Shown here piece by piece: positions 14,221 through 60,036 of a DNA stretch of 64,000 bases (position 1 is the stretch's first letter; each line of letters starts with the position of its first letter). Source of the stretch: a bacterium. Its GTDB lineage: Bacteria > Patescibacteriota > CPR2 > UBA1875 > CAIMLA01. The position numbers and the translations under genes are program-made. The notes under the pieces are model-generated. The model was given only the letters and a program-made list of their open reading frames with translations, ran no database searches and was not told the DNA's origin. The DNA is taken from NCBI GenBank assembly GCA_037129835.1, contig JBAXUE010000002.1, positions 66,334 through 130,333 on the forward strand, given 5' to 3'.

Positions 14221-15708
14221 TCATTGAATTTTTCCGAGAAATTCCCATATCTTGACCATCGCTAGTGTGTCGAGTCCACAGTAGTCCCAGAGGTCTTTTA
14301 GAATTTTCTCTTTTTCGTCTGGATTATTACCATCGAGGACCGCTCCCATCCACAGTCTTTGGGCAGCCAGTCCTTCGGATATTTCTAGGTCTTTGTGTGA
14401 AAGCTCGGGAATAAGTACAGGTAGAACGTGTTTTATTGAAGCACTACCGCCAAATCTAGCGTCCACGTAGTCAAACTCTATAAATGGAGTGATTAGATCG
14501 ATGATTCTCTCATTCAGATTATGATAAAAGGTATGAAACTCGGGCAACATCTCTCCCATATCCCGATTACATCCCTTTTCGAAATCTTCCCACCAGACTA
14601 GTACACTGCCTTTTTTGCCAATATTTTCTGCAAGAGATTGTGATAGTGGTAATACTGGATTGCTATTGTCCTTGTGTAGATATTCGAGATGTCTTACTTC
14701 TGCCCCAGGGCTATCTATAATATGTAGTGAATATTGGAAAGGCACTTGTTGAAACGGTTTATGACCGTCAAAATACGGTATCACACTGCTCATAGTCTCA
14801 TAGTCAAGAAAATATATAGGATACTCTATTGTTGCCAAGAATTGTTTAATATTTTCTTTATTAATAAGCGCTTTATTCTGTTTTAGGGCCTTTATTTGCC
14901 ATCCTTGTTTATCAGAGAGACCAGCGAAATCTTCTGGAACCTCGGCAATCTTCGTGTAACCAGCTTTTTCTAGCTTTCCTATCAGGGTCGCGCTAGGATT
15001 ATAGATATCATAGATACTGCCATCACCGCTTTTTATCCCTGCTAGTAGTTTGTATATTTCTATCCAGTCAGAAGTAGCCGAAAGACCACAGTGTGCAGGT
15101 GAAATATCTGGCATTTTATCTAGCTTGGCAGTTCTAAGAGCTTCTGCGATATTTTCTCTGGCCGCAGGTATTCGTTTTTTTACGGCATCGGTAATATCTG
15201 TGACCGTAGTAATGTCCTCGGGTTTTATTTCTCCTTGTCGAACGAAGTCTTTGTTCACATGAGCTACCATAATGTTGCGTACATGGTATCCCGAGTCCTC
15301 GATCACTATTGTCTGAAATGCCAGATCATGTTCGTGATATACTCGTGGTCCCGTGGAAGATTTGATTTCATATAGATCAATCATATTCTCGTCAACAAAC
15401 TGGATTACGTCAAAAATACAGGTTAGCTCCCCTGCTTCGAAACGACCTTGGAATATAGTTTTAGCGCCAGATTCGATTACCAGTTTTGTTCTACCCGGTA
15501 GAGATAGATACTCTTTGTAGCCGTCCCAGTTTAGCTTCACACCATCTGGAAAAAGCTTCTCGGCGTAGGTTTCAAAACGAAAACCCGCTGCGAATATCGC
15601 TTGAGTAGCCGCGTCGTATGGCGGCAGTTTCTTGGGCTCATTCTTTTTGAGCCAAAGCCAAGCAGGGTGTTTTAAATATAATAAATAATCAGATTTGGAT
15701 AATTGCAT
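14221..15708 (-). CDS. DUF2779-like protein (Cas4/PD-(D/E)XK-type N-domain plus RNase-H-like C-domain)
   Basis: Opening LSKSDYLLYLKHPAWLWLKK and the DLYEIKSS / YFLDYET segments match my recollection of DUF2779. Confidence 0.6.
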   Translation of the reverse strand: MQLSKSDYLLYLKHPAWLWLKKNEPKKLPPYDAATQAIFAAGFRFETYAEKLFPDGVKLNWDGYKEYLSLPGRTKLVIESGAKTIFQGRFEAGELTCIFDVIQFVDENMIDLYEIKSSTGPRVYHEHDLAFQTIVIEDSGYHVRNIMVAHVNKDFVRQGEIKPEDITTVTDITDAVKKRIPAARENIAEALRTAKLDKMPDISPAHCGLSATSDWIEIYKLLAGIKSGDGSIYDIYNPSATLIGKLEKAGYTKIAEVPEDFAGLSDKQGWQIKALKQNKALINKENIKQFLATIEYPIYFLDYETMSSVIPYFDGHKPFQQVPFQYSLHIIDSPGAEVRHLEYLHKDNSNPVLPLSQSLAENIGKKGSVLVWWEDFEKGCNRDMGEMLPEFHTFYHNLNERIIDLITPFIEFDYVDARFGGSASIKHVLPVLIPELSHKDLEISEGLAAQRLWMGAVLDGNNPDEKEKILKDLWDYCGLDTLAMVKIWEFLGKIQ

Positions 15709-15718
15709 ACTCGCCTAT

Positions 15719-15997
15719 CTAGTTGGTAAAGCCAACGTGCTTGGTATTTTCTTCTGCTTGCTCTATCTTAACTCCAAAACCGCTTTCATACTGTTCTATA
15801 TTGGTTTTGAGTGCCTCGTAGAGCCTTTTGGTGTGTCCTGGTGACATTATTATCCTTGAGAGCAACATTCCTTGGTTCTGGAAGATATTAATGAAATCTA
15901 GGGTAAATTCTTCTCTAGTATGTCCGATCATCGCGACATTGGCATAGTTTCCCTTCAGGGTGGCGTCATCGGCTTTTATTTGTACTTGTTGTTCCAT
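15719..15997 (-). CDS. DUF3467-like small protein
   Basis: YANVAMIGHTREEFTLDFINIF resembles the DUF3467 core. SD-bearing 92-aa ORF. Confidence 0.55.
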   Translation of the reverse strand: MEQQVQIKADDATLKGNYANVAMIGHTREEFTLDFINIFQNQGMLLSRIIMSPGHTKRLYEALKTNIEQYESGFGVKIEQAEENTKHVGFTN

Positions 15998-16018
15998 AGT
16001 GTCTCCTTTTCTCTCTTC

Positions 16019-16102
16019 GTCATTCTGAACCGAGTGAAGAATCTAGGATTGTATCTGGATTCCTGCTTACCGCAGGCAAGCTTCTTTCCGACTCAGGATG
16101 AC
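16019..16102. repeat. GTCATYC hairpin-repeat element (two modules in inverted orientation)
   Basis: GTCATTCTGAACCGAGTGAAGAATC at 16019, plus at 16057-16102 the reverse complement of the 46-nt module found at 19816-19861 (43/46 identical). Confidence 0.85.
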
Positions 16103-16122
16103 GATTTGGGGGTGTTAAATTA

Positions 16123-18852
16123 TTATTTTGATACTAATTTCTCTGCTACTAGTTGGGTTATTCTCTTTGGAGGTTTATTTCTAGCTTTAAATGTTTCTTG
16201 AACCAAAAGATAGAATAAAGCGATAAATATTGCTATTGCCCAGGCAGAGAAGTTAAGCGGTGCCATGCCAGCGAATTTCTGGAGAAAAGGAACGTAAATT
16301 AATAAATTTACAAACATAAAAGACACGGCCAGTCCTATCCAGACTCTTTGTGAACCAAGTAGTTTCCATACTGGTTTTCTGGCTGACCGTATAGAAAAAG
16401 CGTTGGCATATTGGCACAGGGCCATGGTGGCATAAGTGACAGTAGTGGCCGCAATATATGTTTCGTTATTCGGAAAAGCACTCCCCCAACGCCAACCATT
16501 TAGATATCCATATATGCAAAATCCCGCCACCGAAAAAACACCCAGCATTATACCACTCCTTACGATGTAGTAGATAGTATCTGTACCAAAGAGGATATCC
16601 TTTTTGTCTCTTGGCGGTTTTGACATCACATCATCCTCTTCTATATCGCCTGCAAGTGCGAGAGCCGGAAAAGCCTCTGCGCAGAGGTCGATTAATAGTA
16701 TTTGGATAACAAAAATCGGAGGCAAGCCGATAACTAGCCCAAAAACAACAGCAGTGAACTCCGCCATATTTGCAGTAAAGACATATTTTGTTGCTTTTTT
16801 GATATTGTCATAGACGATTCTGCCCTCTTTTACCGCCCAAACAATAGAAGAAAAACTGTCGTTCAGCGAAACCATTTCTGCAGCTTCTTTGGTAACATCT
16901 GTTCCTGTCAGCCCCATCGCTACGCCAATATCCGAGGTCTTTAGAGCCGGAGCGTCATTGACGCCATCGCCTGTGACCGAGACGATATTTCCATGTGCTT
17001 GTAGTACTTTCACTAGCCGCAGCTTGTGGATTGGGTCTACCCGAGAGAATATTACATCTCCAGTTTCGATAATCTGATATAGTTCATCGTCTTTCAATTG
17101 ATTTAGTTCATTACCGTCGATGACGCGCGGATCTATGTTCAGCTTGATTCTCTTACCTACGGCTGCTGCTGTCAGGCCATAGTCGCCAGTCGCCATTATT
17201 ATCTTTATTCCAGCTTCTTTAGCGATTCTGACAGTTTCTGCTACATCTTCTCTTGGTGGATCGATAATACCAAGAAGTCCTAAGAAAATCAGGTCAGAAT
17301 CGATTGTACTGCCATCCATAGGCTTATAGGCAGAGGCTATTACTCTCAGCGCATCCTTGGAATATTCGTCATTTGTTTTTTCGATATCTTTTCTATCAGC
17401 TGTAGTTAGTTCGACTGCTTTGCCACCCTTAAGTATTTTTGTACATTTTTGTAAGATAACCGCAGGCGCCCCTTTGACGTATACCGTCTTTTCACCTTTG
17501 TAGTCGACTGCCTTGGCCATGAATTTTCGTTCTGAAGTAAAGGGTATTTCCTCTACACTTTTCGCTTCCCTCTGCATCGTATAAGTATCTAGTCCTGCCT
17601 TTTCTGCTGCCACAAGCAGAGCGATCTCGGTTGAGTCACCGATATAATCTGGTTTGTGATGATTTTTTGTATCGACTTCGGCATTATTGGAAATAGTTAC
17701 AGCTTGAAACAATATATTAGTTTCATCCAGACAGCTTCTGTTGCACAGTTTTCCTTCACGGGTGATTTCCCCGTCGAGACTATATCCCACGCCCTTTATA
17801 TGATAATTTTCGTTATTAAAGTAAATCTCTTTTACGGTCATCTGGTTCTTGGTTAGGGTGCCTGTTTTGTCAGTAATGATGTAGTTTGCCTCACCTAGGG
17901 TTTCCACTGCCGAAAGTCTGCGGATAGCAGCCTTTCTTCTGGTCATTTTTTGGATGCCGATCGCAAGTGCGATAGACACCGTGGCTGGTAAACCCTCAGG
18001 GACAAGAGAAGATGCTACTCCGATGGCAAAACGAAAAGATTCTAGTGCGTCAAAGTGACCCTTTGCTACTGTATCGACTACGAGCAGGATGAGAACGACC
18101 CAGAAGGTTGCTTTGGCTACAGTCTTGGCAATCCGGTCTATCTCTATTTGTAGCGGTGATTTTGATACCTTTTGGGTCGAGGTTATTTTGGCAATTTTAC
18201 CAAAGCTAGTTTCCATTCCGGTGGATACCACCACACCGATACCGTTACCAGAGATTACGTCAGTTCCCATAAATACAGAGCCTGTTACATCGACTACGTT
18301 TCTCTCGTTCTCCTCTGTTACCATCGCTACTTTGGATTGTGTTTCAGATTCTCCTGTAAGTGCTGCATCATTCGTTTCTAACTCATTTGCAGATATTAGC
18401 CGGATGTCTGCTGGTATCTTCATTCCCTCGGAAAGAACAATAATGTCACCGGGTACGATATCCATGGCGTCGATAGTCTGGCGGTCATTGTCTCTGATAA
18501 CGGTTGCAGACTGAGCGACAAATTTCTTAAGAGCGTCTATCGCTTTATCAGCTTTGTATTCTTGGAAAAAACCAATAGTGCTATTGGCAATCACAACTAA
18601 AAAGATGACAATTGCATCTTTAGGTGCTCCTAGAATATATGCGAGACCGGCGGCCGTCAGAAGAACTATCGCTAGAAGGTCAGTGAATTGGACAAGAAAT
18701 TTGACTATATATGGAGTTCGTTTTTGCTGTACTAGCTTATTGTGGCCGTATTTATTGAGACGCGTTGTAACTTCTGCGCTCGAAAGACCTTTGTCAGTCG
18801 TCTTTAGAGTATCTAATACTTTAGTAATATCGTCATAGAGCAATGAATTCAT
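16123..18852 (-). CDS. P2-type cation-transporting P-type ATPase (Ca2+/SERCA-PMCA-like)
   Basis: TGES, PEGLPA, DKTGTLT, TGDGVNDAPAL, and 10-TM topology. Confidence 0.9.
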   Translation of the reverse strand: MNSLLYDDITKVLDTLKTTDKGLSSAEVTTRLNKYGHNKLVQQKRTPYIVKFLVQFTDLLAIVLLTAAGLAYILGAPKDAIVIFLVVIANSTIGFFQEYKADKAIDALKKFVAQSATVIRDNDRQTIDAMDIVPGDIIVLSEGMKIPADIRLISANELETNDAALTGESETQSKVAMVTEENERNVVDVTGSVFMGTDVISGNGIGVVVSTGMETSFGKIAKITSTQKVSKSPLQIEIDRIAKTVAKATFWVVLILLVVDTVAKGHFDALESFRFAIGVASSLVPEGLPATVSIALAIGIQKMTRRKAAIRRLSAVETLGEANYIITDKTGTLTKNQMTVKEIYFNNENYHIKGVGYSLDGEITREGKLCNRSCLDETNILFQAVTISNNAEVDTKNHHKPDYIGDSTEIALLVAAEKAGLDTYTMQREAKSVEEIPFTSERKFMAKAVDYKGEKTVYVKGAPAVILQKCTKILKGGKAVELTTADRKDIEKTNDEYSKDALRVIASAYKPMDGSTIDSDLIFLGLLGIIDPPREDVAETVRIAKEAGIKIIMATGDYGLTAAAVGKRIKLNIDPRVIDGNELNQLKDDELYQIIETGDVIFSRVDPIHKLRLVKVLQAHGNIVSVTGDGVNDAPALKTSDIGVAMGLTGTDVTKEAAEMVSLNDSFSSIVWAVKEGRIVYDNIKKATKYVFTANMAEFTAVVFGLVIGLPPIFVIQILLIDLCAEAFPALALAGDIEEDDVMSKPPRDKKDILFGTDTIYYIVRSGIMLGVFSVAGFCIYGYLNGWRWGSAFPNNETYIAATTVTYATMALCQYANAFSIRSARKPVWKLLGSQRVWIGLAVSFMFVNLLIYVPFLQKFAGMAPLNFSAWAIAIFIALFYLLVQETFKARNKPPKRITQLVAEKLVSK

Positions 18853-18967
18853 AAATATATTTTATGCTATATATAGATAATAATGAAGAGAAATAAATAC
18901 AAATGGAGAAGGTCCGCGCCGGGAAGACGCTTTATATAGCTACCTTCTCGTTGCGGACCTCTTGGAC

Positions 18968-19342
18968 CTAGTCTTCGACCTCATCGATCCCGAGCATCGC
19001 TCTCGCGACTTCGATATCGGGTGCCAGGTCGAAGTTGTTGGTGTACTTCACCAACTTCTTAGAGACCTTCTCGTCCTCGGGGACTACGATCACAAACGGA
19101 ATGTGATCATTCATCAGGTACCGACCAAAGCTGTAGATACGGCCGATAGCCGCGCTACAAAGCTTGGTGACCATTGCGAGGTCGAGAATGACTCCGGCCT
19201 TGCGGGCCTTTATCAGAGTCTTGTCGAACTCGAGTCGGAGAACCGGCTCGACACTGTCGTCGAGATTTCCTCCGAGCTTCAGGATCACGGCCTTGTGGCC
19301 GTTACCTGCTTCGAACTTTTCGATACTGTGTACACAATGCAT
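18968..19342 (-). CDS. STAS-domain protein (anti-sigma-antagonist fold), in G+C-rich islet
   Basis: 124 aa with the pattern VILKLGGNLD...EPVLRLEFDKTLIKARKAGVILDLAMVTKLCSAAIG typical of SpoIIAA/STAS. G+C clearly above its neighbours. Confidence 0.6.
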   Translation of the reverse strand: MHCVHSIEKFEAGNGHKAVILKLGGNLDDSVEPVLRLEFDKTLIKARKAGVILDLAMVTKLCSAAIGRIYSFGRYLMNDHIPFVIVVPEDEKVSKKLVKYTNNFDLAPDIEVARAMLGIDEVED

Positions 19343-19351
19343 ATATCCCCC

Positions 19352-19666
19352 TCAGTCGGTTTCTAGTATTGCCGGGTTTTCGGAAAAGAACCATGAACCC
19401 CACAGCTCTCTCTTGACACCTACTTGCAGCGAATGTACCCACATTCCCCCTATGGGGATTTCGAAAGAGGGAAAGAAATCGAGTTCGATCTCTCCCTGCC
19501 AAACCACTTTCTCACGGTCAACGATATCGTAGATGACAAGTGAGTCACCGGTCTGGAGCAAGTGCAGGCCATCATAGCCGCCTTGCCTTCCTTCTTCTTC
19601 GAAGGCCCAGAAACCTCCTTCGGTTCCGGTCTCGAAGTAGAAATGTAACGTACCCACAAGTTTCAT
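19352..19666 (-). CDS. hypothetical protein (104 aa), in G+C-rich islet
   Basis: ATG at 19666 is preceded by GGGAGGTGA. The longer listed ORF (to 19768) lacks an SD. There is a 9-nt gap to the STAS gene. Confidence 0.55.
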   Translation of the reverse strand: MKLVGTLHFYFETGTEGGFWAFEEEGRQGGYDGLHLLQTGDSLVIYDIVDREKVVWQGEIELDFFPSFEIPIGGMWVHSLQVGVKRELWGSWFFSENPAILETD

Positions 19667-19759
19667 GTGGCTCACCTCCCAAACGATGTTATCGTGATTG
19701 AGACAAAGAGGATTATACAACATAATGAGTGTTCTGTAAAGATAAACATATACTCCCCA

Positions 19760-19861
19760 GTCATCCATGGCCCGCTTTCGTCATCCTTGCGAACGCGAGG
19801 GTCTCTTTTGGCAACGTCATCCTGAGTCGAAACGAAGCTTGCCTGCGGTAAGCAGGGATCC
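19760..19861 (+). repeat. three tandem GTCATCC modules
   Basis: GTCATCC starts at 19760, 19780 and 19816. The last module contains the hairpin CCTGCGGTAAGCAGG. Confidence 0.85.
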
Positions 19862-20234
19862 ATGTCCACTCTCCTTATCGTTCGAATTCTAATGAGAACT
19901 ACAGATACAGGTTATATGTAGTTTTCATAGGATCTACGTAATCCAACCATCAGTTCGAAAAGAAAGAGAGTAAAGTAACGAAGTTATAATAAATAACTTC
20001 CGGTATCGGCTTGTTGTTATTTATTATATTTGAGCTACTGCAACGAATGATACTTTAAAGAATCTGTTAGGTTGGGCTTTTTGCACCACTTTTATTAAAA
20101 AAGTGGCATATATTATAATATAACGTTTAAAAGATATTCGCTAAAGTCGTAATTGCTCGACCTCGAAGATAGTCGAGTACACGGTACCAAGGCGATTTTT
20201 CATTGGGATTAACGCTTAAATATACCGCCCCTTT

Positions 20235-20330
20235 GTCATCCCTGGTCGCACTTGTCCTCCAGTAGCTTGTTAGCGAAGTAGGAACCCCAGTCTGCCCGAG
20301 CCGTACGCTCGTGTCGGCCAGGGGGATCTC
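20235..20330 (+). repeat. GTCATCCCTGG...CCAGGGGGATCTC module with ~55-nt insert
   Basis: Same ends as the short modules at 21275 and 34750-34779. The internal AGTAGC..GCGAAG..AAC resembles 21328-21343. Confidence 0.75.
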
Positions 20331-20331
20331 T

Positions 20332-20619
20332 CTAGTTCCCTTTTATAAATTCCAAAAGTTTCCTTTTAGTTTCCTCTGGGTCATTCGTATATATAAAGAT
20401 ATACTGTCTCGTCGTATTCCCACGGACGACGCATTTAAACCCACTATCGATGTCGAGAAGCTTGATGTTGCGTATTCCCCTGCCGATAACCTTGATTTCA
20501 CCGAGAGAAATCTTACTCACTTCTGGATATTTGGATGCAGCATCGACAAAATCCTCCGCAGCATCGATGATGGTGGTGTGACTGCCGGCATATTTGCTGC
20601 CAGAGCGGTGCGGACTCAT
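20332..20619 (-). CDS. hypothetical protein (95 aa)
   Basis: Its start overlaps the upstream peptidase stop by 4 nt (ATGA). No family assigned with confidence. Confidence 0.55.
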   Translation of the reverse strand: MSPHRSGSKYAGSHTTIIDAAEDFVDAASKYPEVSKISLGEIKVIGRGIRNIKLLDIDSGFKCVVRGNTTRQYIFIYTNDPEETKRKLLEFIKGN

Positions 20620-21254: not shown

Positions 21255-21274
21255 AATTACTTTTCCTCTCCTGT

Positions 21275-21343
21275 GTCATCCCTGGCCACAAACCAGGGAT
21301 CTCCTGCTTATTGTTCGAAGATCGGCAGTAGCCGAAGCGAGAA
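21275..21343 (+). repeat. GTCATCCCTGGCCACAAACCAGGGATCTC hairpin module plus tail
   Basis: 6-bp stem CCCTGG/CCAGGG. Near-identical copy in reverse orientation at 34750-34779. Confidence 0.85.
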
Positions 21344-24768: not shown

Positions 24769-25110
24769 TTATTCCGGAGCTTGAATTGGCTTCGCTTCTC
24801 GTCTTTTCTTTATGTAGCTAACTAGGTTAATTATATCTACAACGAATGACCCAAGCAAAATCACTACGAAAAAGAATAGACCAAGTGCATAAGAGATGGC
24901 ATCACCCCAGGCCTGGTTTGGTAATGTGCGTATATAGGTTCCGAATAGAAAAAATCCGACGGCTACTACGACGCTAGTTATCTTTAGACCTATTGATAGA
25001 TCTCCGAGTTTTTTCCCGGTCTTGATATAGATAATGATCGAAGGTGCGACCATAGCCGCGATAGCAAGCAAGAGTATGAATAGCCCAGTAATTAGACCCA
25101 TAAGCACCAC
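24769..25110 (-). CDS. small integral membrane protein (3 predicted TM)
   Basis: Three hydrophobic stretches. Gap of 11 nt to the next gene. Confidence 0.55.
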   Translation of the reverse strand: MVLMGLITGLFILLLAIAAMVAPSIIIYIKTGKKLGDLSIGLKITSVVVAVGFFLFGTYIRTLPNQAWGDAISYALGLFFFVVILLGSFVVDIINLVSYIKKRREAKPIQAPE

Positions 25111-25146
25111 CCTCCAGACGCGATACGTAACGATTTTGTTATGATA

Positions 25147-26121
25147 TTACTTTTGTACATGTTCCTCTCCTTTTGCATGAATTATATTTTCCATATTATC
25201 ATACAGATAAACAAAATATTTTTCTATTTCATTCATTTTATTTGGTAACATATTTTTTGTAAGAGCTGCCGATTCTGCAAAAAACTCTTCGAAATATTCT
25301 GCATATTCAAGAATAAAGTCGTCAGTGAACTCTCCCTTAATTATACATTCATCATAGAGTGGTTTGATCGCCTTTACTCTGGTCTTTAGATATGGGGTAA
25401 AGGGATTATCTATTAGATATCCCATCCCTGGTGGGTTGTAATACATATTGCCTTCGTCATCTTTGATAAAGAAGAACTGTCCGAATTCGGTATTTGCTAG
25501 TATTCCTCGTTCTAGTTGAGCGCCAGTCCCGTTTTCTGTAGCGTAAAGATTTTTAAAATAAAAATGTCCGATTTCATGTGCAAGTAGATATTCGAGTAGC
25601 GCCTCTTCTTTGTTATCTGCTTCTTTTACTACATCTGGCATCTCGTATGGATAGTCATAGGTATCAAATAGCTTTATATCGCCAAAGTGCTCGCTTTCTC
25701 TGTCGGAAATGGCATGTGCCCGTACCCTCAACCACTCATCACCCTCAGGTAGCTCGTTGTTTGCTTTGGCTTTTTCGTATTCTTCCCTGTTATAAAGCTT
25801 CTTTTCATTCTCTATTCCTGGGGTGTAGACATACATTATTACATTATCATAGATTATTTTTGATATACCGACTTTTTTAAAATCCTCTAATTCGTAATTT
25901 CTCGCGATGAACTCCAAGGCGCTCTCTCCTAGATTCTTGTTTTCTTCAAATCCTTCGAAACCGAGATATGCTCGAAAATCATCTAGCTTCTCCTTTGATA
26001 TTTCATCATGAGTTTCCGTATAGACACTACTAGTAGGCGCACTTTCTTTAAGTTTTGTTCTTTCCCACAGCTTACTAGCCTCACGCTCAGCAGGTCCTAT
26101 TGGTAATGGTATATGTTCCAC
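25147..26121 (-). CDS. hypothetical HExxH protein (324 aa)
   Basis: YLLAHEIGHFYF motif. Acidic, with no signal peptide or TM. Confidence 0.55.
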   Translation of the reverse strand: MEHIPLPIGPAEREASKLWERTKLKESAPTSSVYTETHDEISKEKLDDFRAYLGFEGFEENKNLGESALEFIARNYELEDFKKVGISKIIYDNVIMYVYTPGIENEKKLYNREEYEKAKANNELPEGDEWLRVRAHAISDRESEHFGDIKLFDTYDYPYEMPDVVKEADNKEEALLEYLLAHEIGHFYFKNLYATENGTGAQLERGILANTEFGQFFFIKDDEGNMYYNPPGMGYLIDNPFTPYLKTRVKAIKPLYDECIIKGEFTDDFILEYAEYFEEFFAESAALTKNMLPNKMNEIEKYFVYLYDNMENIIHAKGEEHVQK

Positions 26122-26140
26122 TATTATCCTTTCTTTGTAT

Positions 26141-26812
26141 TTATTTCTCTTTCGTCACCAAGAACGGAAAAACTCTGTTCATTTCATCGTTCCGAAGGAT
26201 AAATGCCGCCTCGAGGAAAGTATACAGTAAATCTTTTGTATTTTTCAGTACATCAGCACTACAAAAGACGACGAAATCAGCTTCGTTTATCTCTGAGGGC
26301 GATTGGATGTGGATCTTGTTTCTCAAGTTCTTGAGCTGTTTCAAATCATTTCGATAAAAGGCAAATGACAGCCCGAATGTCTGCTCCTGCGCAGACTTAT
26401 AGAGTAAGCTCTTAAAATCATGGATATCGTCATAGCTGGCACCTGTTTCTTTGTGCTGGATATACAGAATAGACTCTATTATTAGTGCCGATATCAGAAC
26501 AAATGTCTTCACATTCTGCCCATAGAGAGAGCTGGTGAGATATAGCTGCTTGGTGCATTCGTCTAGATAGTGAAGATATTGGAGATTATAGGCGATGTTA
26601 CTAAAAGCAGCATACTTTGGGTCATCATCAGAAAATTCGTAATCTATCAGCCGTGGGAATATAGTACTGCGATAGAAATCTATTGAGTTTGGCAGAAACT
26701 TGTTCGAACCCTCCTCTTTGGAACAAACCCGACACAAGATATTAGGCTTGTCTGGATTGTACAAGTCCTGCTTTACAAAGCCTGAATTGCTGTGTTGTTC
26801 TGTTTTAGTCAT
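26141..26812 (-). CDS. hypothetical alpha-helical protein (223 aa)
   Basis: Intact ORF flanking the DUF262-HNH genes. Contains LKNLRNKIHIQ (see rejected HEPN idea). Confidence 0.5.
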   Translation of the reverse strand: MTKTEQHSNSGFVKQDLYNPDKPNILCRVCSKEEGSNKFLPNSIDFYRSTIFPRLIDYEFSDDDPKYAAFSNIAYNLQYLHYLDECTKQLYLTSSLYGQNVKTFVLISALIIESILYIQHKETGASYDDIHDFKSLLYKSAQEQTFGLSFAFYRNDLKQLKNLRNKIHIQSPSEINEADFVVFCSADVLKNTKDLLYTFLEAAFILRNDEMNRVFPFLVTKEK

Positions 26813-26873
26813 TTTTCCCTTTTATAAAAGAATACATTGTTCTATCTTACTTTGTAAAAAATTATTAACTAAA

Positions 26874-28229
26874 CTAGTCTCTGCCACCCCTTTGTCTATT
26901 ACAATATCGGTGGACTAATCTGGCGTTTGATAGCTTGGTTTCTCCACCTCGCCAGTAAAACTCAATATGATCAACCTCAGAATCGTCTAAAACACGTATT
27001 TTTTGACCACATATTTTACAGGTTGAATCAGTGTCAAAAAGTTGCTTTTTCTCGTCGTGTGAATAGTTTCTTGTCTGTGACTTGGAATAATCTACGATTT
27101 TCCTCAAAGATTCTAGCCATTTCTCAAATCTGTATTGCACATTTTCTGGCTTATCTGTTGATGACTTCAAGGAATCTTCAAATTTCTTGACAGCTGTCAT
27201 TAAGTGTAAAAGTTCTTCGCGAATAGAATCAAGGTGAGGGATAATTTCGTTTTTTTGATACATCGTGAAACCCCACATTACGATGTCAAATAAGCCTTTG
27301 TTTATTTTTGTATTTTCCCACTTTCCGTTTGAGTCAGATTCTTCGCCTACAACAAACCTACGAAAAGCATTGTCACCAAATACTGAGCGAGTTAGGTCAA
27401 CAGATTTTTTAAAAACCTCACGAAGTTCTTTTGCTTTTTCTTCATTTAGATTTTGGTTATTATGCATTTCTTGATTTAGAAACTGTCTCATGGGTGCTTT
27501 GTATTTTAAGTATGAGTTATTATAAAAAGCGAAAAATCGTAATAAAAGCTCTCTATCAATCATTCTTATGGACATAGCTGGTGATTTTAATAATGTTTGA
27601 TATTCTTTATTTTCGGCAAGCTCGATTAGTAAGTCGTTATATTTTCCACGGTAAATACAGTTTCTGAGTTCCTGGTCGTTCAGCTTCACTGCGCCAGTAT
27701 TTAGTCTTTCGAAAACCTCAAATCTAACATTGATATCAGAATCCTTTTTGATTCTGATAAATGGTATAAGATAAGAATCAACTTTTCGCTGTGTTATTTT
27801 GTCTAGTTCCTTAAATGATTTCCTGTTTAGTCCTGTCAAAACCTTTAATCCCGAAAGGGCAAATTTTTCGTGCTTGTCTTGAAAGTACCCGTCCTTAAAA
27901 GAAAAGATAGAAATTAGTCTTTGTTGCCCGTCTATTACTGATTGGGTACCGTCATCTTCTTCGGCAGTGTATATTACTGGTATCGGGACTCCCAAGAGAA
28001 TAGATTCTATCAGTCTACTAGCTTTGCTTTTATCCCAGACATATCCTCTTTGAAAGTATGGTCTTACATCAAGTTCCCCTGCCTTGTAATCAGAATATAA
28101 GTCTTTTATGGCTCTACTGGGGTTGTCAAAGGTAATTCTTCTTTCATCCTCAGGTATATCAAAAACCAGTGGTTCGTTGTCATTATTGTCTTCTTCAAGA
28201 ATAACGTCATTATTATCTATTACCGTCAT
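26874..28229 (-). CDS. DUF262 (ParB-like NTPase) plus C-terminal HNH nuclease, GmrSD-like
   Basis: RPYFQRGYVW...VIDGQQRLISI (DUF262 DGQQR motif). C-terminus CKICGQ...VDHIEFYWRGGETKLSNARLVHRYCN (HNH). Confidence 0.8.
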   Translation of the reverse strand: MTVIDNNDVILEEDNNDNEPLVFDIPEDERRITFDNPSRAIKDLYSDYKAGELDVRPYFQRGYVWDKSKASRLIESILLGVPIPVIYTAEEDDGTQSVIDGQQRLISIFSFKDGYFQDKHEKFALSGLKVLTGLNRKSFKELDKITQRKVDSYLIPFIRIKKDSDINVRFEVFERLNTGAVKLNDQELRNCIYRGKYNDLLIELAENKEYQTLLKSPAMSIRMIDRELLLRFFAFYNNSYLKYKAPMRQFLNQEMHNNQNLNEEKAKELREVFKKSVDLTRSVFGDNAFRRFVVGEESDSNGKWENTKINKGLFDIVMWGFTMYQKNEIIPHLDSIREELLHLMTAVKKFEDSLKSSTDKPENVQYRFEKWLESLRKIVDYSKSQTRNYSHDEKKQLFDTDSTCKICGQKIRVLDDSEVDHIEFYWRGGETKLSNARLVHRYCNRQRGGRD

Positions 28230-28285
28230 AATTCTCCTTTACTTTGATCTATCGTTTTTGCTTATCAAGTTTTTTCATTGGTTCG

Positions 28286-29449
28286 CTATTTATTTCCCTT
28301 GGCACGGTTATGTGTTTTACAAAGCATCTCACAGTTATTGATATCTGTGGCGCCACCTTTACTCCATGCTGTAACATGGTCAGCATCCATTTCGGTAAGA
28401 CTCCAGATTTTTGTCTTGTTGGCGTCGTGACCGATTACGCAATTCGGACAATTTGAAATGCCTTTAGATTTAGCGGTCGTAGTTTGTGACGAATATACCG
28501 CTTTTTTAGTTGCCTCATCAAAAACACGAACTTCAAGTAGTTTCTTTTCATTAGACCCACCTAGAATATATTCAAATATTCCCTTTCGATTTTTTATGTA
28601 TGGGTCTCCATAAAGCTTTTGTACGGCCAATGACACTTTTGCAGGATCATAGGCTTTTGTATGAAATTTTTTATAAAGTCGACCCCAATCCAGGCCTCGC
28701 ATTTCACTTTCAACATCTATAAATACACCAGAAACCCATTCTATTACGCTTTTAAAATATGCTTTTAACTCAGTGATATTGTTATCAAAGCGGTGACGAC
28801 TCATATATTCGCCGTTATTACCACAACTAATCCAGTCTAAGGCTCTCTCTAGAAATTCCTGTCTGTTGGCACTGCCAGTTACATAAGCACTCCATTTTTG
28901 AATGTTGGCATTTTGACTATTACTGAATTCCTCTTTACCAAGTGTGACAAATGGACCAGAATAAACCGCATTTAATAGTTCTTGATTATTTAGCGGTACA
29001 CCGGCAATGTTTATGGTTTTGAACCACTCTTTTATTTCACTTTCTTCGCCCTCGCATTCGTATATAAGAAGCTCAGCGTTCATGATTTTAGCCTGCTTAT
29101 CTGAAGCAATTCCACTGAAGTATTGTTCCATGCCGTTTTCGTCTTTTATGGCAAATTTGTTATAAACGAATCGTCCGATACTAGTGATACGTTGTTGTCC
29201 GTCCAATACTTCTAAGTTGTCAGTGCTCACTTTGTTAAAATATATTAAGCCCAGCGGATAGTCTTTGAGTAATGAGTCAATGACCGCGACGTCTTTTTTA
29301 CCATCAGCATAGATGTAGTTACGTTGATACTCTGGCTGAATAGTGAGCTTGCCAGAGAGTCCGAACAAACCCTTGCCTTCATGCTGGTTATACACAAATC
29401 CTTCACATATATTTCTTACGGTTATGTTAGTTACTAAAGTAGTTTTCAT
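28286..29449 (-). CDS. DUF262 (ParB-like NTPase) plus C-terminal HNH nuclease
   Basis: [11 protein letters not shown]...[12 protein letters not shown]-terminus CPNC...[26 protein letters not shown]. Its start overlaps the methyltransferase stop by 4 nt. Confidence 0.8.
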
Positions 29450-30648
29450 GCTATACCTTTCTTGTGTTTGATTAAAATCCTAGCGAATGGAACCACAACA
29501 GTTTCATCTTTTATCATATATAAATCACCGTTCACCGTTCCTCTTTTTTGCACTTCTTTCCGATACTTTTTATGCTCAGGTTTATACGGTTTGACTCCGA
29601 TGGATAAGCCCAGGTTTGCTATTCCCAAACCAATAATATCAAATTGTTCAGGAGAATATTTGTCAAGGAAACTAATTGGCACGCCCATAATACCCTTAAA
29701 GTCTCCAGGAATATGTTTAACGAAAGGAACTTCTATTGCATTAAAATTATCATAATTATCAAAAGATCTTTTAGTGCCAAATTTTATAACGTCTGACAAT
29801 TTCATTAATGGTAAGAATTCGTGAAGCCTTCCGTGGTCAAGATTAGTAAACCAGCGAACACCTTGGACTCTCGTGATGTAAACTTTCTTACCATTTTCAT
29901 CCGTCCGTATTTCGCGTACTTGCTCTAGATTGGCAATATCTTCTGGTATTTCATAAAACATTGCTCCACCATTCACTTTATGATTATTGCCAAGCCAAAT
30001 CTTGTTATCCTTAATTAATGGAAAGACTTCTTTATAAGTAATAGCGTTCATACTACCAATTATTAAGAACTTTTTTTTGTACTCAATAAGTTGTTTTAAG
30101 TACTCGCGGAACAAACTGAAAGGCGGGTTAGTTACCACTATATCAGCCTGCTTTAGTAGCTCAACACACTCGTTGCTCCGAAAATCTCCGGCTGCGTATT
30201 TATCATCGCCAAGTAAAAGCGAATAAGCATTATTGTCATGTTCTAAAAGCCATTTCACATCATTAAGGTTGGTTATGCCATCTTTATTAAGGTCTGAAAC
30301 CTCATTGATCTCAATTTTAAATGCTTTTTTATTTTTTCGATTAGAAAGTGTCTTATTTTTACCCATTTCTTCGAAACCCGGTATTTGTATCTGTGTTTGT
30401 ACAATCGGCGAACCAACGTAGCTTGTCGTTATCAACTTTTTTAAGCCAAATTCCTTAAATTTATTTGCAAAATACTTGAAGAAATTACTTTCAAATGGGT
30501 CATCGCAGTTGCAATAGACTATCTTGCCGCGAAAAACATCAGGATCGTAATCAATGTAGGCTTGGATTTCCTTCTGAATATCTTGATATTGAGTATAAAA
30601 CTCGTCGTTTTTAGTCTTTTTTGCGTTATGTAAATTTTTTTGTGCCAT
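29446..30648 (-). CDS. EcoRI-methylase-family N6-adenine DNA methyltransferase
   Basis: N-terminus [25 protein letters not shown] is typical of that family. Catalytic motif [11 protein letters not shown]. Confidence 0.8.
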
Positions 30649-30660
30649 TTAAAACCTTAT

Positions 30661-31128
30661 TTATTTTTCAAAGCAAATTGGATTAAATATCTTTTCAGGA
30701 AAATCGTTATCTCCAATTTTATATTTTAATTCACCGTTTGTTCCATGTACTGAATATTTTTCTCGATTGCGCTTTGACACAGAAATTGATTTGACTCCGG
30801 ACTGGCTAGGCCTTAACAACCTCTCAATTTCGTCATAGTTTAAGCAACAAACTCCTGCATCGTAACATACAAGTAGGACAAAAACCTTCTCAAACTTTGA
30901 TTTTAGCTCTAATAGTTTTTCGAGATGATTCTCCGAAAATGTAAAGCTCCAGGGGATTAACCGACTCTCAGTATATTTAACATATAAGCCACTTTCTCTG
31001 AGCTGAGAGAGAATCTTAAAACTAGAATTGTCATCATCAACATAATCACTAACACCAAGACATCTTTGGTCTTGAATTATTTTTAGTAAAGCTGCCCCGT
31101 AATATAGTTGATATTTAAAATTTGCCAT
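30661..31128 (-). CDS. hypothetical protein (155 aa) between the Z1 and methyltransferase genes
   Basis: Gaps of 6 nt and 12 nt to its neighbours. Has D/E...K-containing beta-strand segments (YVKYTES, VFVLLVCYD), but no secure nuclease motif. Confidence 0.55.
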   Translation of the reverse strand: MANFKYQLYYGAALLKIIQDQRCLGVSDYVDDDNSSFKILSQLRESGLYVKYTESRLIPWSFTFSENHLEKLLELKSKFEKVFVLLVCYDAGVCCLNYDEIERLLRPSQSGVKSISVSKRNREKYSVHGTNGELKYKIGDNDFPEKIFNPICFEK

Positions 31129-31134
31129 AATAAT

Positions 31135-33018
31135 TTATCTTAGCCTATAGTTTGCCTTTTTAAGGCTATCTTTAAAATAGTAAACAAATCTACACTTTCC
31201 TGCCTCGTTTCTGATCAACATAATATGGTGCTTTGCATTGGGAAAAGCGACCATTTCTGTACCACCAAAAACACCCCTACTTCTGTATAAAAAGTCCTTA
31301 TATTCAAGGTCATCTGTTTTTGAAACCATTCTTATTGGATGGAATGCTATGTCCTTGTCTGCAGTCATTCCACTGTATACAATAAAATTAATTAGAAATA
31401 GAGGCACCACACTGCCACCGTAAAGCCGGTTAACTTCTTTTAGCTTTTGGATATTACTTATTCCTTTTTTACTAATAATATCTGAAAAAATGCTAGCGTA
31501 ATCAAACATAGGAAAATACATTTCGTTTTTGTCAGTTAATATATTCTTCTTGTCGATACTAGAACTAGAGGCGGGCTTAACTCTTTGGCTTGAAATCCAA
31601 ACTGGTGCTGCACCCTCGTCATTGCTTTTTAATGATTTTAAAGATAAATCATGAAAAATAAAACAACGGTGCCAGTCCTCGAAAAGTGATTTTGGTATTG
31701 AGAGTTCAAAGAAGTCTTTGTATTTGCCTCTACTGCCGAACATTCTAGCTCTTTGGATATAAGTGTCTTGTTGAATCCTGTGTTTAGCAGTTCGTGTGAA
31801 GAACATGCCCAAAAGATTCTTTATTGTTAAGCCCCGGGAAATTATATTTCCACCAATTATTATTGTAAAAAGAGCTGGTGCATTAGTTGGGTCTTCTTCC
31901 ATTTTATTATTTGAGTTAATAACATAAACTTTTTTCTTATTAACATAATCTTTGACAAATGTTGTCACTTCTTTTGCTGCTATATCACCAAATCTTTCTT
32001 CTGCAATACTGTGTATTATTCCAAGGTAACGTTCCCATTTGGGACCCTTATTTGTATCTGCCAGTGCGTCAAAAAAATTATCTACAATTTTTTTATCTCT
32101 TTCGTGTTCACTTTTAATGCCACTTGTATGAATAATAAAAGCAAAATTAACATCATCATTATTCGCATTTTGTTCTACGAGCTTTTCCTTGTACTCGGGA
32201 TTTATATTTAAATAAGAAGCATTAACTAAAAAGCTTGCTAAAGCTTCATGTAAATATGATGGGTCATCTCCATTCTCAGGAAGTATATTCACCATGTATT
32301 CAACTTCGGTTATTTTTTCTAGATTAATTGGAAAAAAAAAGTCTTTGCCTACATAATTTTTATGAGAATCAAAAAATACCCATTCTTCAGATAAATTATC
32401 AAAAGTATTGTTAAGATCTAGTCGTGCTGGAGTGGCTGTTACCCCAACGTAGGTGCCGTCTCTTCGAAGTAATTTGCCGATTTCGTTATTAATTGCCGTT
32501 ACTTCATCTTTATTTATTTTAGAATTTGGGCTGGCATAATCAGCCTCGTCATCAATTATTATTAAACCACTTCTATTTCTTAGTTTTTCGTTTAAATTTG
32601 TTAAATTGCGGATATTTTTCTTTGAAAAAATTATAACCTGCCCATCATTTAAGTCTTCTTCAAGAAAAGCCCTGCTAGACATGGTATCTGGTGTAGGGTC
32701 GATACCTGAACTAGTAAATCTTTCGAGATTTTGAAGTTCAAGCTTTTTATTGTCATTCATGAGAATAACAATAGTGTTGTTGCCAATATCAAGTAATTTT
32801 GCTGTAAGCGATATCATCATTTCGGTTTTGCCACTTTGTGGCTCACCGTAAATCACAAATGATGTTATACCCTTTTGAATTTTTTCTACTGAATCTGAAA
32901 CAGCGTTTTCAATTTGAAAAGTATCAATACCCTTTTTATCTCTAAGGAAATTAATTCTTTTCTCATATCGGCTGTTTCTTCTATTTTCTGAGTCTCTATA
33001 ATCATCTGGATTAAACAT
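31135..33018 (-). CDS. Z1-domain protein with SF2-helicase-like ATPase core
   Basis: GEPQSGKTE (Walker A), IIIDDEADYAS (DEAD-like), VGVTATPARL, GGNIISRGLTIKNLLGMFFTR, DTYIQRARMFGSRGKY. SD GGAGAG before the ATG. Confidence 0.8.
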   Translation of the reverse strand: MFNPDDYRDSENRRNSRYEKRINFLRDKKGIDTFQIENAVSDSVEKIQKGITSFVIYGEPQSGKTEMMISLTAKLLDIGNNTIVILMNDNKKLELQNLERFTSSGIDPTPDTMSSRAFLEEDLNDGQVIIFSKKNIRNLTNLNEKLRNRSGLIIIDDEADYASPNSKINKDEVTAINNEIGKLLRRDGTYVGVTATPARLDLNNTFDNLSEEWVFFDSHKNYVGKDFFFPINLEKITEVEYMVNILPENGDDPSYLHEALASFLVNASYLNINPEYKEKLVEQNANNDDVNFAFIIHTSGIKSEHERDKKIVDNFFDALADTNKGPKWERYLGIIHSIAEERFGDIAAKEVTTFVKDYVNKKKVYVINSNNKMEEDPTNAPALFTIIIGGNIISRGLTIKNLLGMFFTRTAKHRIQQDTYIQRARMFGSRGKYKDFFELSIPKSLFEDWHRCFIFHDLSLKSLKSNDEGAAPVWISSQRVKPASSSSIDKKNILTDKNEMYFPMFDYASIFSDIISKKGISNIQKLKEVNRLYGGSVVPLFLINFIVYSGMTADKDIAFHPIRMVSKTDDLEYKDFLYRSRGVFGGTEMVAFPNAKHHIMLIRNEAGKCRFVYYFKDSLKKANYRLR

Positions 33019-33044
33019 AGCTCTCCAAATTTAATATATATTAT

Positions 33045-33073
33045 ATTCTACTCTCCTTTTGTGCTTATCGCAA
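33045..33073 (-). promoter_or_regulatory. putative sigma-70 promoter of the Z1 operon
   Basis: On the - strand: TTGCGA-17 nt-TAGAAT, about 27 nt upstream of the Z1 ATG. The -35 overlaps the small palindrome TGCTT..AAGCA. Confidence 0.4.
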
Positions 33074-33109
33074 GCATAAATTCGGTTTGACGGCTCTAGG
33101 CATCGGATA

Positions 33110-33137
33110 TTGACAACTAAAATACGCGGAGTATAAT
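33110..33137 (+). promoter_or_regulatory. consensus sigma-70 promoter (TTGACA-16 nt-TATAAT) facing away from the Z1 operon
   Basis: Exact -35 (33110-33115) and exact -10 (33132-33137) hexamers on the + strand in a non-coding gap. Confidence 0.6.
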
Positions 33138-33142
33138 TATTC

Positions 33143-33243
33143 ATGAAGAGAGCAGTAATGCCTATGTAACGCCGAGTGGAGGCACCTCGATAGAGGGCCC
33201 GTGAAGCGAGGAGCACGAGTATATAGGTCACCTCTTCTTTTTT
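33143..33243 (+). ncRNA. candidate ~100-nt small RNA (unknown class) between DUF3800 and Z1 genes
   Basis: Starts just downstream of the consensus promoter. Closing stem GAAGAG (33145-50)/CTCTTC (33232-37) is followed by T6. Inner 8-bp hairpin GCACCTCG (33182-89)/CGAGGAGC (33207-14). G+C-richer than its surroundings. The only ORF here (33031..33231 -) lacks an SD. Confidence 0.45.
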
Positions 33244-33877
33244 ATAGCTTATTTTCTAAATATATTAAATTAACTTTTTTACCTAGTTTAGTCAGAGTTT
33301 TTTTATTTCCATACAGGTGACTATGAATAATTCCACATATCTGATCTGCTATTTGTAGATTTGCTTCTTCTGACGTGCCAAAATCAATACGAAAGTCCGA
33401 CTCTGGGTACTCTAGTTTTAGTTCGGTCTCGATAGTTCTTGATAAACCTTCTTTATTAATTAATTTTGTTTTAAAACTATCTAAAGTCACTATAGTCACC
33501 TTTTCACGTTTAAATGTTTTGCTAGATTCAAGCAAAACCTTCTTTACAAGGTTGATGTACAACCTGTCATAGACAAGCTTACTTTTGTAATAATATTTCT
33601 GAGACAGCAGATTCTTGCTCTGAGAAGCAGCGAATACTGTAATCTCAGGTGCTGGACACTCAGGACTAAAGATATATGGCAATATATACAAGTCTGATAA
33701 AGCATTTGAGCTCTTTATTTCACCTTTCGGATAACTGGCAGGTAGTGCCTTCCTCTTAACCTTCTTATACCATTTCGCCGTCTCACCCGGATTTGCAGTG
33801 CTAAAACCGGCCACAGCCATAAACTGATTTTTTGTGCCCTTTTCTAAGTTAAAAGTTTCGTCGATATAGATAAACAT
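33242..33877 (-). CDS. DUF3800-like protein
   Basis: N-terminus MFIYIDETFNL (the IYIDE acidic motif typical of DUF3800). 211 aa. Confidence 0.65.
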   Translation of the reverse strand: MFIYIDETFNLEKGTKNQFMAVAGFSTANPGETAKWYKKVKRKALPASYPKGEIKSSNALSDLYILPYIFSPECPAPEITVFAASQSKNLLSQKYYYKSKLVYDRLYINLVKKVLLESSKTFKREKVTIVTLDSFKTKLINKEGLSRTIETELKLEYPESDFRIDFGTSEEANLQIADQICGIIHSHLYGNKKTLTKLGKKVNLIYLENKL

Positions 33878-33941
33878 ACTTATATTTTACCCTTGCCATA
33901 GGATAAAACTAGTAGACAAGTTGAAACAGCACGCTAGCCTA

Positions 33942-34661
33942 CTATTTCAAATCACGTAATTCCTCTATCACTCCGACTTTATTAAGAATGGGTATCATTT
34001 CGGAGCTACCTTCATAATTACTATAGTAGAAAGTTCCACCGATTTCGTACCATCTTTTAAATGGTTTCCCTTTCTCTGGAGTGAACAAAAAATGTGTCCA
34101 AAGTCTGTAGTCTAGCATGTCGATGTGATTTGTCTCGACATGTAGAAATGAGTGCGGCTTCAACACGCCTAGTGAGTTCTCTGCTATCCCCATCGGTGCT
34201 GGCGGGTCATCATCTTGAGGTATATTACCCCCTACAATATCCTCGACACTGGTATAGTGATTACTTGAATCATTTATAATATAGGCGTCATAGAAGCCAG
34301 ACTCTTTTTCGTCAAAGACGATTGCAATGTAGAGTCCCTTGTTATGTTTTCTGATTTTGTCCCACTCTTTCTGTTCTTCTATCTCTGGACATATCATCTT
34401 GGCACTGCATTTAGGGCATGGATGACTAGCTGGCCAGATGTGATACTTTTCGTCATGACAATATGGGCATAGATTCACTAGAGACTGAAAGTATTTCTCT
34501 GGATCCCACGGCACATCCCAAGCCTTGGTAGTGACTTCTACTAATATCTTTCTTCTATCACAGACACAAGTCCGCGTTTCCTGATCGGCACAGCGGCCAA
34601 AACCAGCAATAGTCTTTTTTTGATAATTACACTTTGTGCATTTGTATAACTTGTGTGTCAT
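33942..34661 (-). CDS. hypothetical multi-zinc-ribbon protein (239 aa)
   Basis: Start moved to the ATG at 34661, because the listed 5' extension translates hairpin repeats. Cys pairs: CTKC, CVCD, CPYC, CPKC. Confidence 0.55.
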   Translation of the reverse strand: MTHKLYKCTKCNYQKKTIAGFGRCADQETRTCVCDRRKILVEVTTKAWDVPWDPEKYFQSLVNLCPYCHDEKYHIWPASHPCPKCSAKMICPEIEEQKEWDKIRKHNKGLYIAIVFDEKESGFYDAYIINDSSNHYTSVEDIVGGNIPQDDDPPAPMGIAENSLGVLKPHSFLHVETNHIDMLDYRLWTHFLFTPEKGKPFKRWYEIGGTFYYSNYEGSSEMIPILNKVGVIEELRDLK

Positions 34662-34702: not shown

Positions 34703-34779
34703 GGAGGTCATCCTTACGAAAGTAAGGATGACCTCCGGAGGGTAAGAAAGAGATCCCTGGGTTTGTGACCAGGGATGAC
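34703..34779. repeat. two GTCATCC hairpin modules
   Basis: GGAGGTCATCCTTACGAAAGTAAGGATGACCTCC (14-bp stem) and GAGATCCCTGGGTTTGTGACCAGGGATGAC (reverse copy of the 21275 module). Confidence 0.9.
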
Positions 34780-34976
34780 AACGGGTGTTCCCACGAAAAA
34801 TAACTCAGTCCGCAGACCGACACTTTGAGAAATATGTATGCTGTAGCTCGGCTACTAAAAGTATTTTTAAAAGAGAGTTGTTATTTTTCTTGAACTTAAC
34901 TCCATTTTCTTTCAAGAGAAAATGGATAATAAATAATTAATAAATTTTTAGTTAGAATAAATTGGTATATTGCGAA

Positions 34977-35546: not shown

Positions 35547-35577
35547 TTTACTCCTATTTTGTGCTTAGAGCAAGGGA

Positions 35578-59938: not shown

Positions 59939-59957
59939 GGTTTATGTACTTTCCCCC

Positions 59958-60012
59958 GTCATGCTGAATTTATTTCAGTATCCCGAGATCCTGAATCGAG
60001 TTCAGGAAGACG
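59958..60012 (+). repeat. GTCATGCTGAA / CCTGAATCGAGTTCAGG hairpin-repeat module
   Basis: Related to the 16019 module (GTCATTCTGAACCGAG). Two short hairpins, lying between der and pth. Confidence 0.7.
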
Positions 60013-60036
60013 CAAAGAGGTGTGCGACGAGTGTAG

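Follow-up and report, generated by a model that had tools for sequence, protein, structure and literature searches.

Inverted 46-nt repeats at the borders of a P-type ATPase operon are probably members of a family of small G+C-rich hairpins

A stretch of 64 kb from contig JBAXUE010000002.1 of an uncultured bacterium (the window, to which all coordinates refer) contains an operon for a P-type cation ATPase that is bracketed by two inverted 46-nt repeats. We conclude that these 46-mers probably belong to a family of small G+C-rich hairpin repeats found in intergenic spacers, and that the spacers in question here flank an ordinary operon on either side. We see no sign that the repeats delimit a 3.8-kb element able to move or invert. 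The 3.8 kb between them would be an ordinary chromosomal operon which neither moves nor flips as a unit.

A comparison of the two copies shows that the left 46-mer is the reverse complement of the right one, GTCATCCTGAGTCGAAACGAAGCTTGCCTGCGGTAAGCAGGGATCC, at 43 of the 46 positions. The three mismatches (positions 15, 18, and 42) leave a longest exact run of 23 nt, and the similarity widens to 57 nt at 88% identity when the surroundings are included (16047-16103 and 19815-19871). With up to three mismatches allowed, only these two matches are found in the whole window and none of 100 shuffles gave a match, so the inverted repeats reported by the first-pass annotation of this DNA are real. The right copy precedes the -35 element of the promoter-like site of the operon by 75 nt, and the head of the left copy follows the ATPase stop codon (16123-16125) after 20 nt. 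Among other strains of the same species, the right copy is unchanged in L003, L008, L010, and L011 and is missing from L004, and the left copy is unchanged in L003 and L004. Each copy was found again in independently built assemblies, so the pair did not arise through misassembly.

The 46-mer is a composite that reads GTCATCCTGAGT-C-GAAACGAAG, then CTTGCCTGCGGTAAGCAGG, then GATCC. Removing the 19-nt hairpin CTTGCCTGCGGTAAGCAGG and one C leaves exactly the 25-nt module GTCATCCTGAGTGAAACGAAGGATC, which is present repeatedly on the Planktothrix agardhii plasmid NZ_LR882964. The 46-mer variant is thus a 25-nt module that gained a nested 19-nt hairpin. A related hairpin of 19-20 nt, CCCGCCTGCGGCAGGCAGG, is seen as an insertion in L003 and L008 relative to L004 and to window positions 34783-34936. 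Its presence in some of these sequences and absence from others means that mini-hairpins of such type come and go independently. The 19-nt hairpin alone gave no match in IMG/VR. When the JGI collection was scanned with the 23-nt core GAAGCTTGCCTGCGGTAAGCAGG, three orthologous right-hand sites and one unrelated contig were found. The same scan of the GTDB representatives, which evidently do not include the source genome, gave a single match, a deltaproteobacterial metagenome-assembled genome (MAG) carrying CGTCATAGGAAGCTTGCCTGCGGTAAGCAGGAAT. The core is exact in two unrelated genomes, at 5858-5891 of L007 (the deltaproteobacterial MAG, CAWGWZ010000027), where it is preceded by a CGTCAT head, and at 2448-2470 of L009. 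About 0.1 exact matches of the core would be expected by chance per collection.

The first-pass annotation also assigned the repeats to a dispersed family, and this is correct. The modules follow a common plan, with a head (C/T)GTCAT, a stem starting with YC, a short loop, the complementary stem, and a tail GRATC(TC). Their interiors differ. Eleven heads are found at six intergenic sites in the 64 kb, and the interval 16.0-21.3 kb alone contains four of these sites. Of the 23 GTCATYC heptamers in the window, 11 are intergenic, although intergenic DNA amounts to just 10.8% of the sequence (p = 8.7e-6). A looser hairpin census gave 19 matches against 9.7 expected, which is not decisive alone, and the enrichment of the head heptamer was therefore used; a stricter hairpin finder requiring 6 perfect pairs returned mostly noise. 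The family is enriched in intergenic DNA and locally clustered, and it forms both inverted doublets and tandem arrays. The two modules at 34706-34781 give the fold of -58.7 kcal/mol with z = -6.6. A search against Rfam gave no match at the gathering thresholds in the whole window, and its permissive mode at three module sites stayed at chance level (E >= 0.16). No tRNA was found by a tRNA scan.

Both 46-mers sit in clusters of modules. At the left site, the coding strand reads the ATPase stop codon, the 46-mer, an 11-nt spacer, the inverted Module A, and then the ribosome-binding site and start codon of a DUF3467 gene. The left doublet formed by the 46-mer and Module A takes up most of the 125-nt spacer between the ATPase stop codon and the DUF3467 start (15997). 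Its predicted fold on the coding strand has an energy of -32.7 kcal/mol (z = -2.65), and no U-tract stands behind the hairpin. At the right site, three plus-strand heads are arranged in tandem at 19760, 19780, and 19816. Tandem partial heads of a similar kind are present on the Planktothrix plasmid. The two ends are asymmetric, as the 46-mer is the module nearest the operon in the left cluster and the one farthest from it in the right cluster. All coordinates are collected in Table 1.

Table 1. Repeat modules and operon features in the 64-kb window
Feature	Position	Strand	Remarks
Right 46-mer	19816..19861	+	22-nt head part GTCATCCTGAGTCGAAACGAAG, nested 19-nt hairpin, tail GATCC
Left 46-mer	16057..16102	-	Head-to-tail reading on coding strand
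Nested 19-nt G+C hairpin CTTGCCTGCGGTAAGCAGG	19838..19856	+	Within right 46-mer
Identical nested 19-nt hairpin	16062..16080	-	Within left 46-mer
Module A CGTCATTCTGAACCGAGTGAAGAATCTAGG	16018..16047	+	Near-canonical, inverted relative to left 46-mer
Left doublet	16018..16103	.	Two head-outward modules, 86-nt hairpin, REPIN-like
27-nt module CGTCATCCTTGCGAACGCGAGGGTCTC	19779..19805	+	In tandem with right 46-mer, on its inner side
Partial third head (AGTCATCCATGG...)	19759..19778	+	Right site
Long module (GTCATCCCTGG...CCAGGGGGATCTC)	20229..20331	+	Abuts DUF2103 stop codon
Module TGTCATCCCTGGCCACAAACCAGGGATCTCC	21274..21305	+	Spacer between ComF-like and peptidase-like genes
Two modules	34706..34781	.	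Perfect palindrome GGTCATCCTTACGAAAGTAAGGATGACC; TGTCATCCCTGGTCACAAACCCAGGGATCTC on minus strand
Inverted module doublet	59957..60013	.	Pth-EngA spacer
P-type cation ATPase, 909 aa	16123..18852	-	Five Pfam P-type ATPase domains
ORFan gene, 124 aa, possibly STAS fold	18968..19342	-	GC3 0.70
ORFan gene, 104 aa	19352..19666	-	GC3 0.55
Promoter-like site TTTACA-17-TATAAT	19712..19740	-	For the 104aa-124aa-ATPase operon; inside the bracket

The bracketed DNA holds what the first-pass annotation described, that is the ATPase gene and two small genes, and no transposase is found within the bracket. The promoter-like site of the operon matches at 11 of 12 positions, is the best one in 15500-20600, and is kept in the window, L003, and L004. 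The G+C-rich islet of two genes is real as well. The G+C content is 53-54% at 19000-19450 against 39% for the window, and the G+C contents at third codon positions (GC3) of the two small genes are the two highest in the window, where the mean is 0.37 (standard deviation 0.08). The ATPase gene has a native-like GC3 of 0.39. As the ATPase is native-like and the small genes are outliers, the bracketed DNA does not have a single history and did not arrive as a unit. In a search of 5.8 billion proteins, both small proteins proved to be ORFans restricted to the species. The 124-aa protein had been labelled 'STAS', and the part of this that stands is that its two best PDB sequence matches are both STAS proteins; these matches are weak (E = 0.086 and 0.52), no Pfam match is obtained, and no similarity is seen to the true STAS gene located beside a related ATPase. 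The AlphaFold single-sequence model, with a pLDDT (predicted local distance difference test) of 36, is unusable. The label is plausible but weak.

The ATPase is named 'MAG: cation-transporting P-type ATPase [bacterium]' at NCBI, and its nearest named homologues belong to CPR2 and Patescibacteria MAGs. The window further contains genes for DUF2779, PIF1, a ComF-like protein, DprA, and a TrwB-like ATPase, and nearly all of its genes lie on one strand (minus). This gene content and the homologues would fit a small genome of the candidate phyla radiation.

Twelve conspecific contigs from ENA, Logan, and JGI, representing at least eight samples, were fetched via exact matches to the ATPase, DUF3467, and DUF2103 proteins and to the DNA core. 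All 12 are colinear with the window where they overlap it, and neither an inverted junction nor an empty site is found; the ENA contig ERZ27300174:k141_20016, which is 372,584 bp long, matches the window at 100% identity. Absence or inversion of the 3.8-kb block, proposed as a check, was seen in none of them. The modules, on the other hand, vary among close strains at otherwise conserved sites. In particular, L004 keeps the left doublet unchanged and the promoter-like site and operon in place, and the right modules are gone: 24 nt stand where the window has ~190 nt with these modules. At the position of the DUF2103 stop codon, L003, L008, and L010 carry a 30-nt module with equal head and tail and another interior. 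A non-coding segment of ~155 nt, which lies at 34783-34936 beside a GIY-YIG gene in the window, recurs at 92-95% identity in the spacer between the DUF2103 and 104-aa genes of L003 (~1060-1290) and L008 (1123-1294), in opposite orientation relative to the genes. This segment is always preceded by a GATC-hairpin-GGATGAC module, the interior of which differs. In the Logan sample SRR7053572, two contigs end ~160 nt apart upstream of the operon, as L002 starts at window position 19846 and L077 ends at 20005.

The strains also reveal a mosaic. The window, L003, and L004 are near-identical (1-2 differences) from 15861 (L003) or 16017 (L004) to 19312/19342. This block of 3.3-3.45 kb contains the 124-aa gene, the ATPase gene, and the left doublet, and the right repeat is outside. 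On the right it falls ~500 nt short of the repeat, and on the left it extends 40-200 nt beyond the repeat. The left flank of the block is 4-10% diverged and the 104-aa gene 30-45%; to be noted, the comparison is biased, as the contigs were selected for an identical ATPase protein. The pattern indicates that the stretch from the 124-aa gene through the ATPase to the left doublet has been exchanged by recombination. In L004, the block begins no more than 2 nt from the outer border of the left doublet. The 104-aa gene is hypervariable among strains (70% and 55% amino-acid identity), with its frame kept and many third-position changes. It adjoins a 124-aa gene that is identical across strains, and the divergence switches within ~30 nt, at 19313-19343.

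In two related species, ATPases with 71-74% identity are found in other gene neighbourhoods. One of them lies in the order YggT-STAS-DEAD helicase-ATPase-PF1765-like gene-...-IleRS, and the other adjoins genes of a MacB/FtsX-type ABC transporter. The loss of synteny at this level of ATPase identity says little about mobility. No GTCATCC modules are found in ~14 kb around the ATPase gene in each of the two species, and their spacers behind the ATPase contain no strong hairpins. The modules are therefore additions specific to the present species.

The canonical form of the module, GTCATYCTGAGCGAAGCGAAGRATC, is found in very different genomes with unrelated flanks. In IMG/VR, 67 copies are located in 58 contigs with G+C contents of 37-69%, and apart from a T in front and a TC behind, their flanks are unrelated. 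Covariation is seen between the Y and R positions (41 T/A, 25 C/G, 1 T/G, 0 C/A); the Fisher p of 1.6e-17 for this covariation is overstated because the copies are not independent events. Copies outside open reading frames (ORFs) of at least 100 aa number 43 of the 67, though such DNA makes up 22% of the bases. No orientation bias relative to the adjacent gene ending is seen (16 same, 13 opposite), and many copies follow a stop codon by 3-20 nt. Further matches are found on plasmids of Planktothrix, Calothrix, Oscillatoria, Hymenobacter, and Granulicella, mostly in unannotated DNA, and these hosts span Cyanobacteriota, Bacteroidota, and Acidobacteriota. Inverted doublets are also present in L015, in L055, and on the Planktothrix plasmid. 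Inverted modules enclose a small GIY-YIG nuclease gene on both sides at 5940-6860 of L078, which is the plasmid NZ_LR882964, and at 10731-11228 of L060, and these brackets include tandem partial heads. We rejected GIY-YIG as a general partner of the modules, as such a gene is nearby in one of the 58 IMG/VR loci. Literature searches with literal sequences and peptide strings returned no relevant paper.

Several other explanations of the bracket have to be weighed. If it were a non-autonomous composite element, as the first-pass annotation suggested, the 46-mers would be terminal inverted repeats and the operon would have been moved as a unit by a transposase encoded elsewhere, now or formerly. 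Inverted repeats of 93% identity do enclose exactly one operon including its promoter, they are the only known copies of the 46-mer variant, and two of the enclosed genes are of foreign composition. The other neighbourhoods of the 71-74% identical ATPases and the GIY-YIG genes of the Planktothrix plasmid and L060, which stand between inverted modules of this family, also point in this direction. Other observations speak against it. Target-site duplications, proposed as a test just outside 16057 and 19861, are absent, the best direct repeat over 484 boundary pairs (22 x 22) being 4 nt, of which ~2 are expected by chance. No transposase, integrase, or invertase domain is found among the ~59 ORFs of the window. 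The operon has equal location and orientation in all 12 conspecific contigs, with no empty site, and in L004 it is in place without the right repeat. Furthermore, the edge of the strain-identical block is not at the right repeat, only the small genes and not the ATPase deviate in GC3, and the 46-mer is inner at the left and outer at the right. The composite element was not borne out, and we consider it quite improbable.

An invertible segment, the second proposal of the first-pass annotation, would be flipped by site-specific or RecA-dependent recombination between the copies. A length of ~23 nt is near the minimum for homologous recombination, and the inverted repeats share an exact run of this length; the two Logan contigs L002 and L077 also break near the right repeat. 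But this break stretch is a spacer that differs between co-occurring strain types, and in the same sample L002 passes unbroken through the left repeat. An inverted junction is found in none of the 12 contigs, and no recombinase or invertase gene is present in the window. A flipped operon would oppose the near-universal minus-strand orientation of the genes, and since the promoter-like site is inside the bracket, flipping would not switch expression. The inversion site did not hold up either and is very improbable. The least likely reading of all is a long-range RNA stem, in which the copies would pair in a read-through transcript from the DUF2103 unit and be cut by RNase III, like the stems flanking 16S and 23S rRNA. 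The co-oriented genes make read-through conceivable, and in the coding-strand transcript the two copies are predicted to pair at 44 of 46 positions with -84.5 kcal/mol. A transcript started at the operon's promoter-like site, however, would include the left copy only, since the right copy lies upstream of that site. In addition, L004 lacks the right copy, and each copy folds locally and sits in a local doublet. Pure coincidence, by which two members of a large pool of identical 46-mers across the genome were inserted independently, is unlikely, though somewhat less so. The family is dispersed and frequent in spacers, and our census covered 64 kb of the genome. However, the window has just two 46-mers, its other modules have different interiors, and the GTDB and JGI scans with the 23-nt core gave the three orthologous right-hand sites and no other locus of the organism. 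As the variant is rare, the two 46-mers are more likely local copies of one another, inside a module cluster, than two random high-copy draws. The remark of the first-pass annotation that the bracket may be coincidental is thus right in its appeal to a dispersed family and doubtful as to random draws.

It is likewise unlikely that the GTCAT-headed hairpins are cross-phylum mobile modules of ~25 nt, with no described transposase, whose inverted pairs occasionally capture DNA, including conceivably the ATPase operon. Such modules may insert beside or inside one another and be replaced at fixed sites with head and tail constant, and the GIY-YIG mini-genes of the Planktothrix plasmid and L060 may be candidate cargo. 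If this is true, the ATPase operon would represent an uncommon case of large cargo trapped by a pair of copies.

Several points weigh against hairpin repeats at the borders of an ordinary operon, which we nevertheless prefer. No enzyme able to move the modules was identified within the window. The 46-mer variant is rare and not high-copy, its 23-nt core being confined to the orthologous right-hand sites and two unrelated genomes. The only two known copies are adjacent and abundance gives no explanation for this, so the extra assumption of local copying is needed. Fetching by exact proteins biases the strain sample to close relatives. The state of L004, in a divergent allele, may be a secondary loss or replacement instead of an ancestral empty site, which is conceivable because 24 nt replace ~190 nt and the adjoining 104-aa gene is also divergent. 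Finally, the hairpin of the left doublet has no U-tract, and a role at the RNA level is drawn from analogy only.

For the preferred hairpin-repeat explanation, we propose that the two spacers bounding the operon received their 46-mers by copying, either of one repeat from the other or of both from a rare shared source. The copying would use the same trans-acting, probably single-strand or hairpin-specific mechanism by which the repetitive extragenic palindromic (REP) sequences and their doublets (REPINs) and the small dispersed repeats (SDRs) of cyanobacteria spread. The left doublet would be transcribed at the 3' end of the ATPase message. In E. coli operons, REP hairpins protect the upstream mRNA from 3'-exonucleases and partly uncouple neighbouring cistrons. 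By analogy, the left doublet would most likely hold back 3'-exonucleases or partly insulate the cistrons from each other. The right copies, located upstream of the promoter, are probably neutral passengers or buffers of read-through from the DUF2103 unit.

The case calls for caution. Here a conspicuous pair of inverted repeats around transport genes arose as a by-product when small hairpin repeats settled at operon borders, and it does not signal a transposon. The bracket itself is ordinary, and the cross-phylum reach of the 25-nt module is the only part possibly worth specialist pursuit. The spread of such small modules is a question already raised for REPINs and SDRs, and the present species offers several natural occupied and unoccupied alleles for its study.

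Some further features were observed elsewhere in the window. A match to the SAM-I riboswitch (RF00162) is found at 37224-37351 on the minus strand, upstream of a 70-aa ORF and metK (35578-36651). It covers the full model length and is sub-threshold, with 30.8 bits against a gathering threshold of 44.4 (E = 5.5e-5); this match explains part of a 489-nt G+C-rich gene-free gap. The motif CTTGC-N5-GCACAAAAGGAG (coding strand), which contains a small hairpin and a ribosome-binding site, lies upstream of three neighbouring genes, at 33045-33074, 34668-34697, and 35545-35574. This implies that the 293-aa ORF (33942-34823) has its true start at 34661. A defence/restriction island occupies ~25100-34700, with two GmrSD-HNH genes, an EcoRI-type adenine methyltransferase gene, a Z1/SNF2 helicase gene, and a DUF3800 gene, followed by the GIY-YIG protein.

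Among known systems, composite transposons and cargo-carrying elements resembling MITEs (miniature inverted-repeat transposable elements) are alike in that inverted repeats flank cargo with no transposase between them. They differ from the present case, where no target-site duplication, second location, or whole-unit presence/absence is found, the ends are asymmetric, and the cargo is compositionally mixed. Tiny G+C-rich hairpins are also known from A+T-rich organelle spacers, as the GC clusters of yeast mitochondria and the PstI palindromes of Neurospora, which lie at gene borders, are sometimes nested, and vary among strains. These are an analogy only, since sequences and hosts are unrelated.

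A close resemblance is seen to the REP sequences, bacterial interspersed mosaic elements (BIMEs), and REPINs of Proteobacteria, which are mobilised by RAYTs, Y1 transposases of IS200/IS605-like type. These are likewise short, imperfect extragenic palindromes with a conserved head, often found after stop codons. They occur as singles, tandem clusters, and inverted doublets that fold into a longer hairpin, the latter being the definition of REPINs (PMC3337134, PMC3116915), and they produce no target-site duplications. No RAYT or Y1 transposase gene was found in the 64-kb window. The head of REP sequences is GTAG and is recognised by a RAYT, whereas here it is (C/T)GTCAT, and the interiors here are heterogeneous. 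The 25-mer is common to several phyla, unlike REPINs, which are described as lineage-specific and vertically inherited (bioRxiv 10.1101/2022.05.22.493013). The modules also resemble cyanobacterial SDRs in having near-identical units of ~25 nt in unrelated flanks, nesting, and presence or absence among strains. The SDR units treated by Elhai et al. in 2008 are reportedly ~21-27 nt long and show nested insertions. SDR5 inserts precisely into HIP1 (PMC4390886), and SDRs are listed beside REPINs (PMC3116915). A direct link is the same 25-nt module on Planktothrix and Calothrix plasmids; the difference is that the present host is no cyanobacterium but an uncultured, small-genome bacterium that probably belongs to the candidate phyla radiation. 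Taken together with these systems, the repeats are REP- or SDR-like and lie at operon borders.

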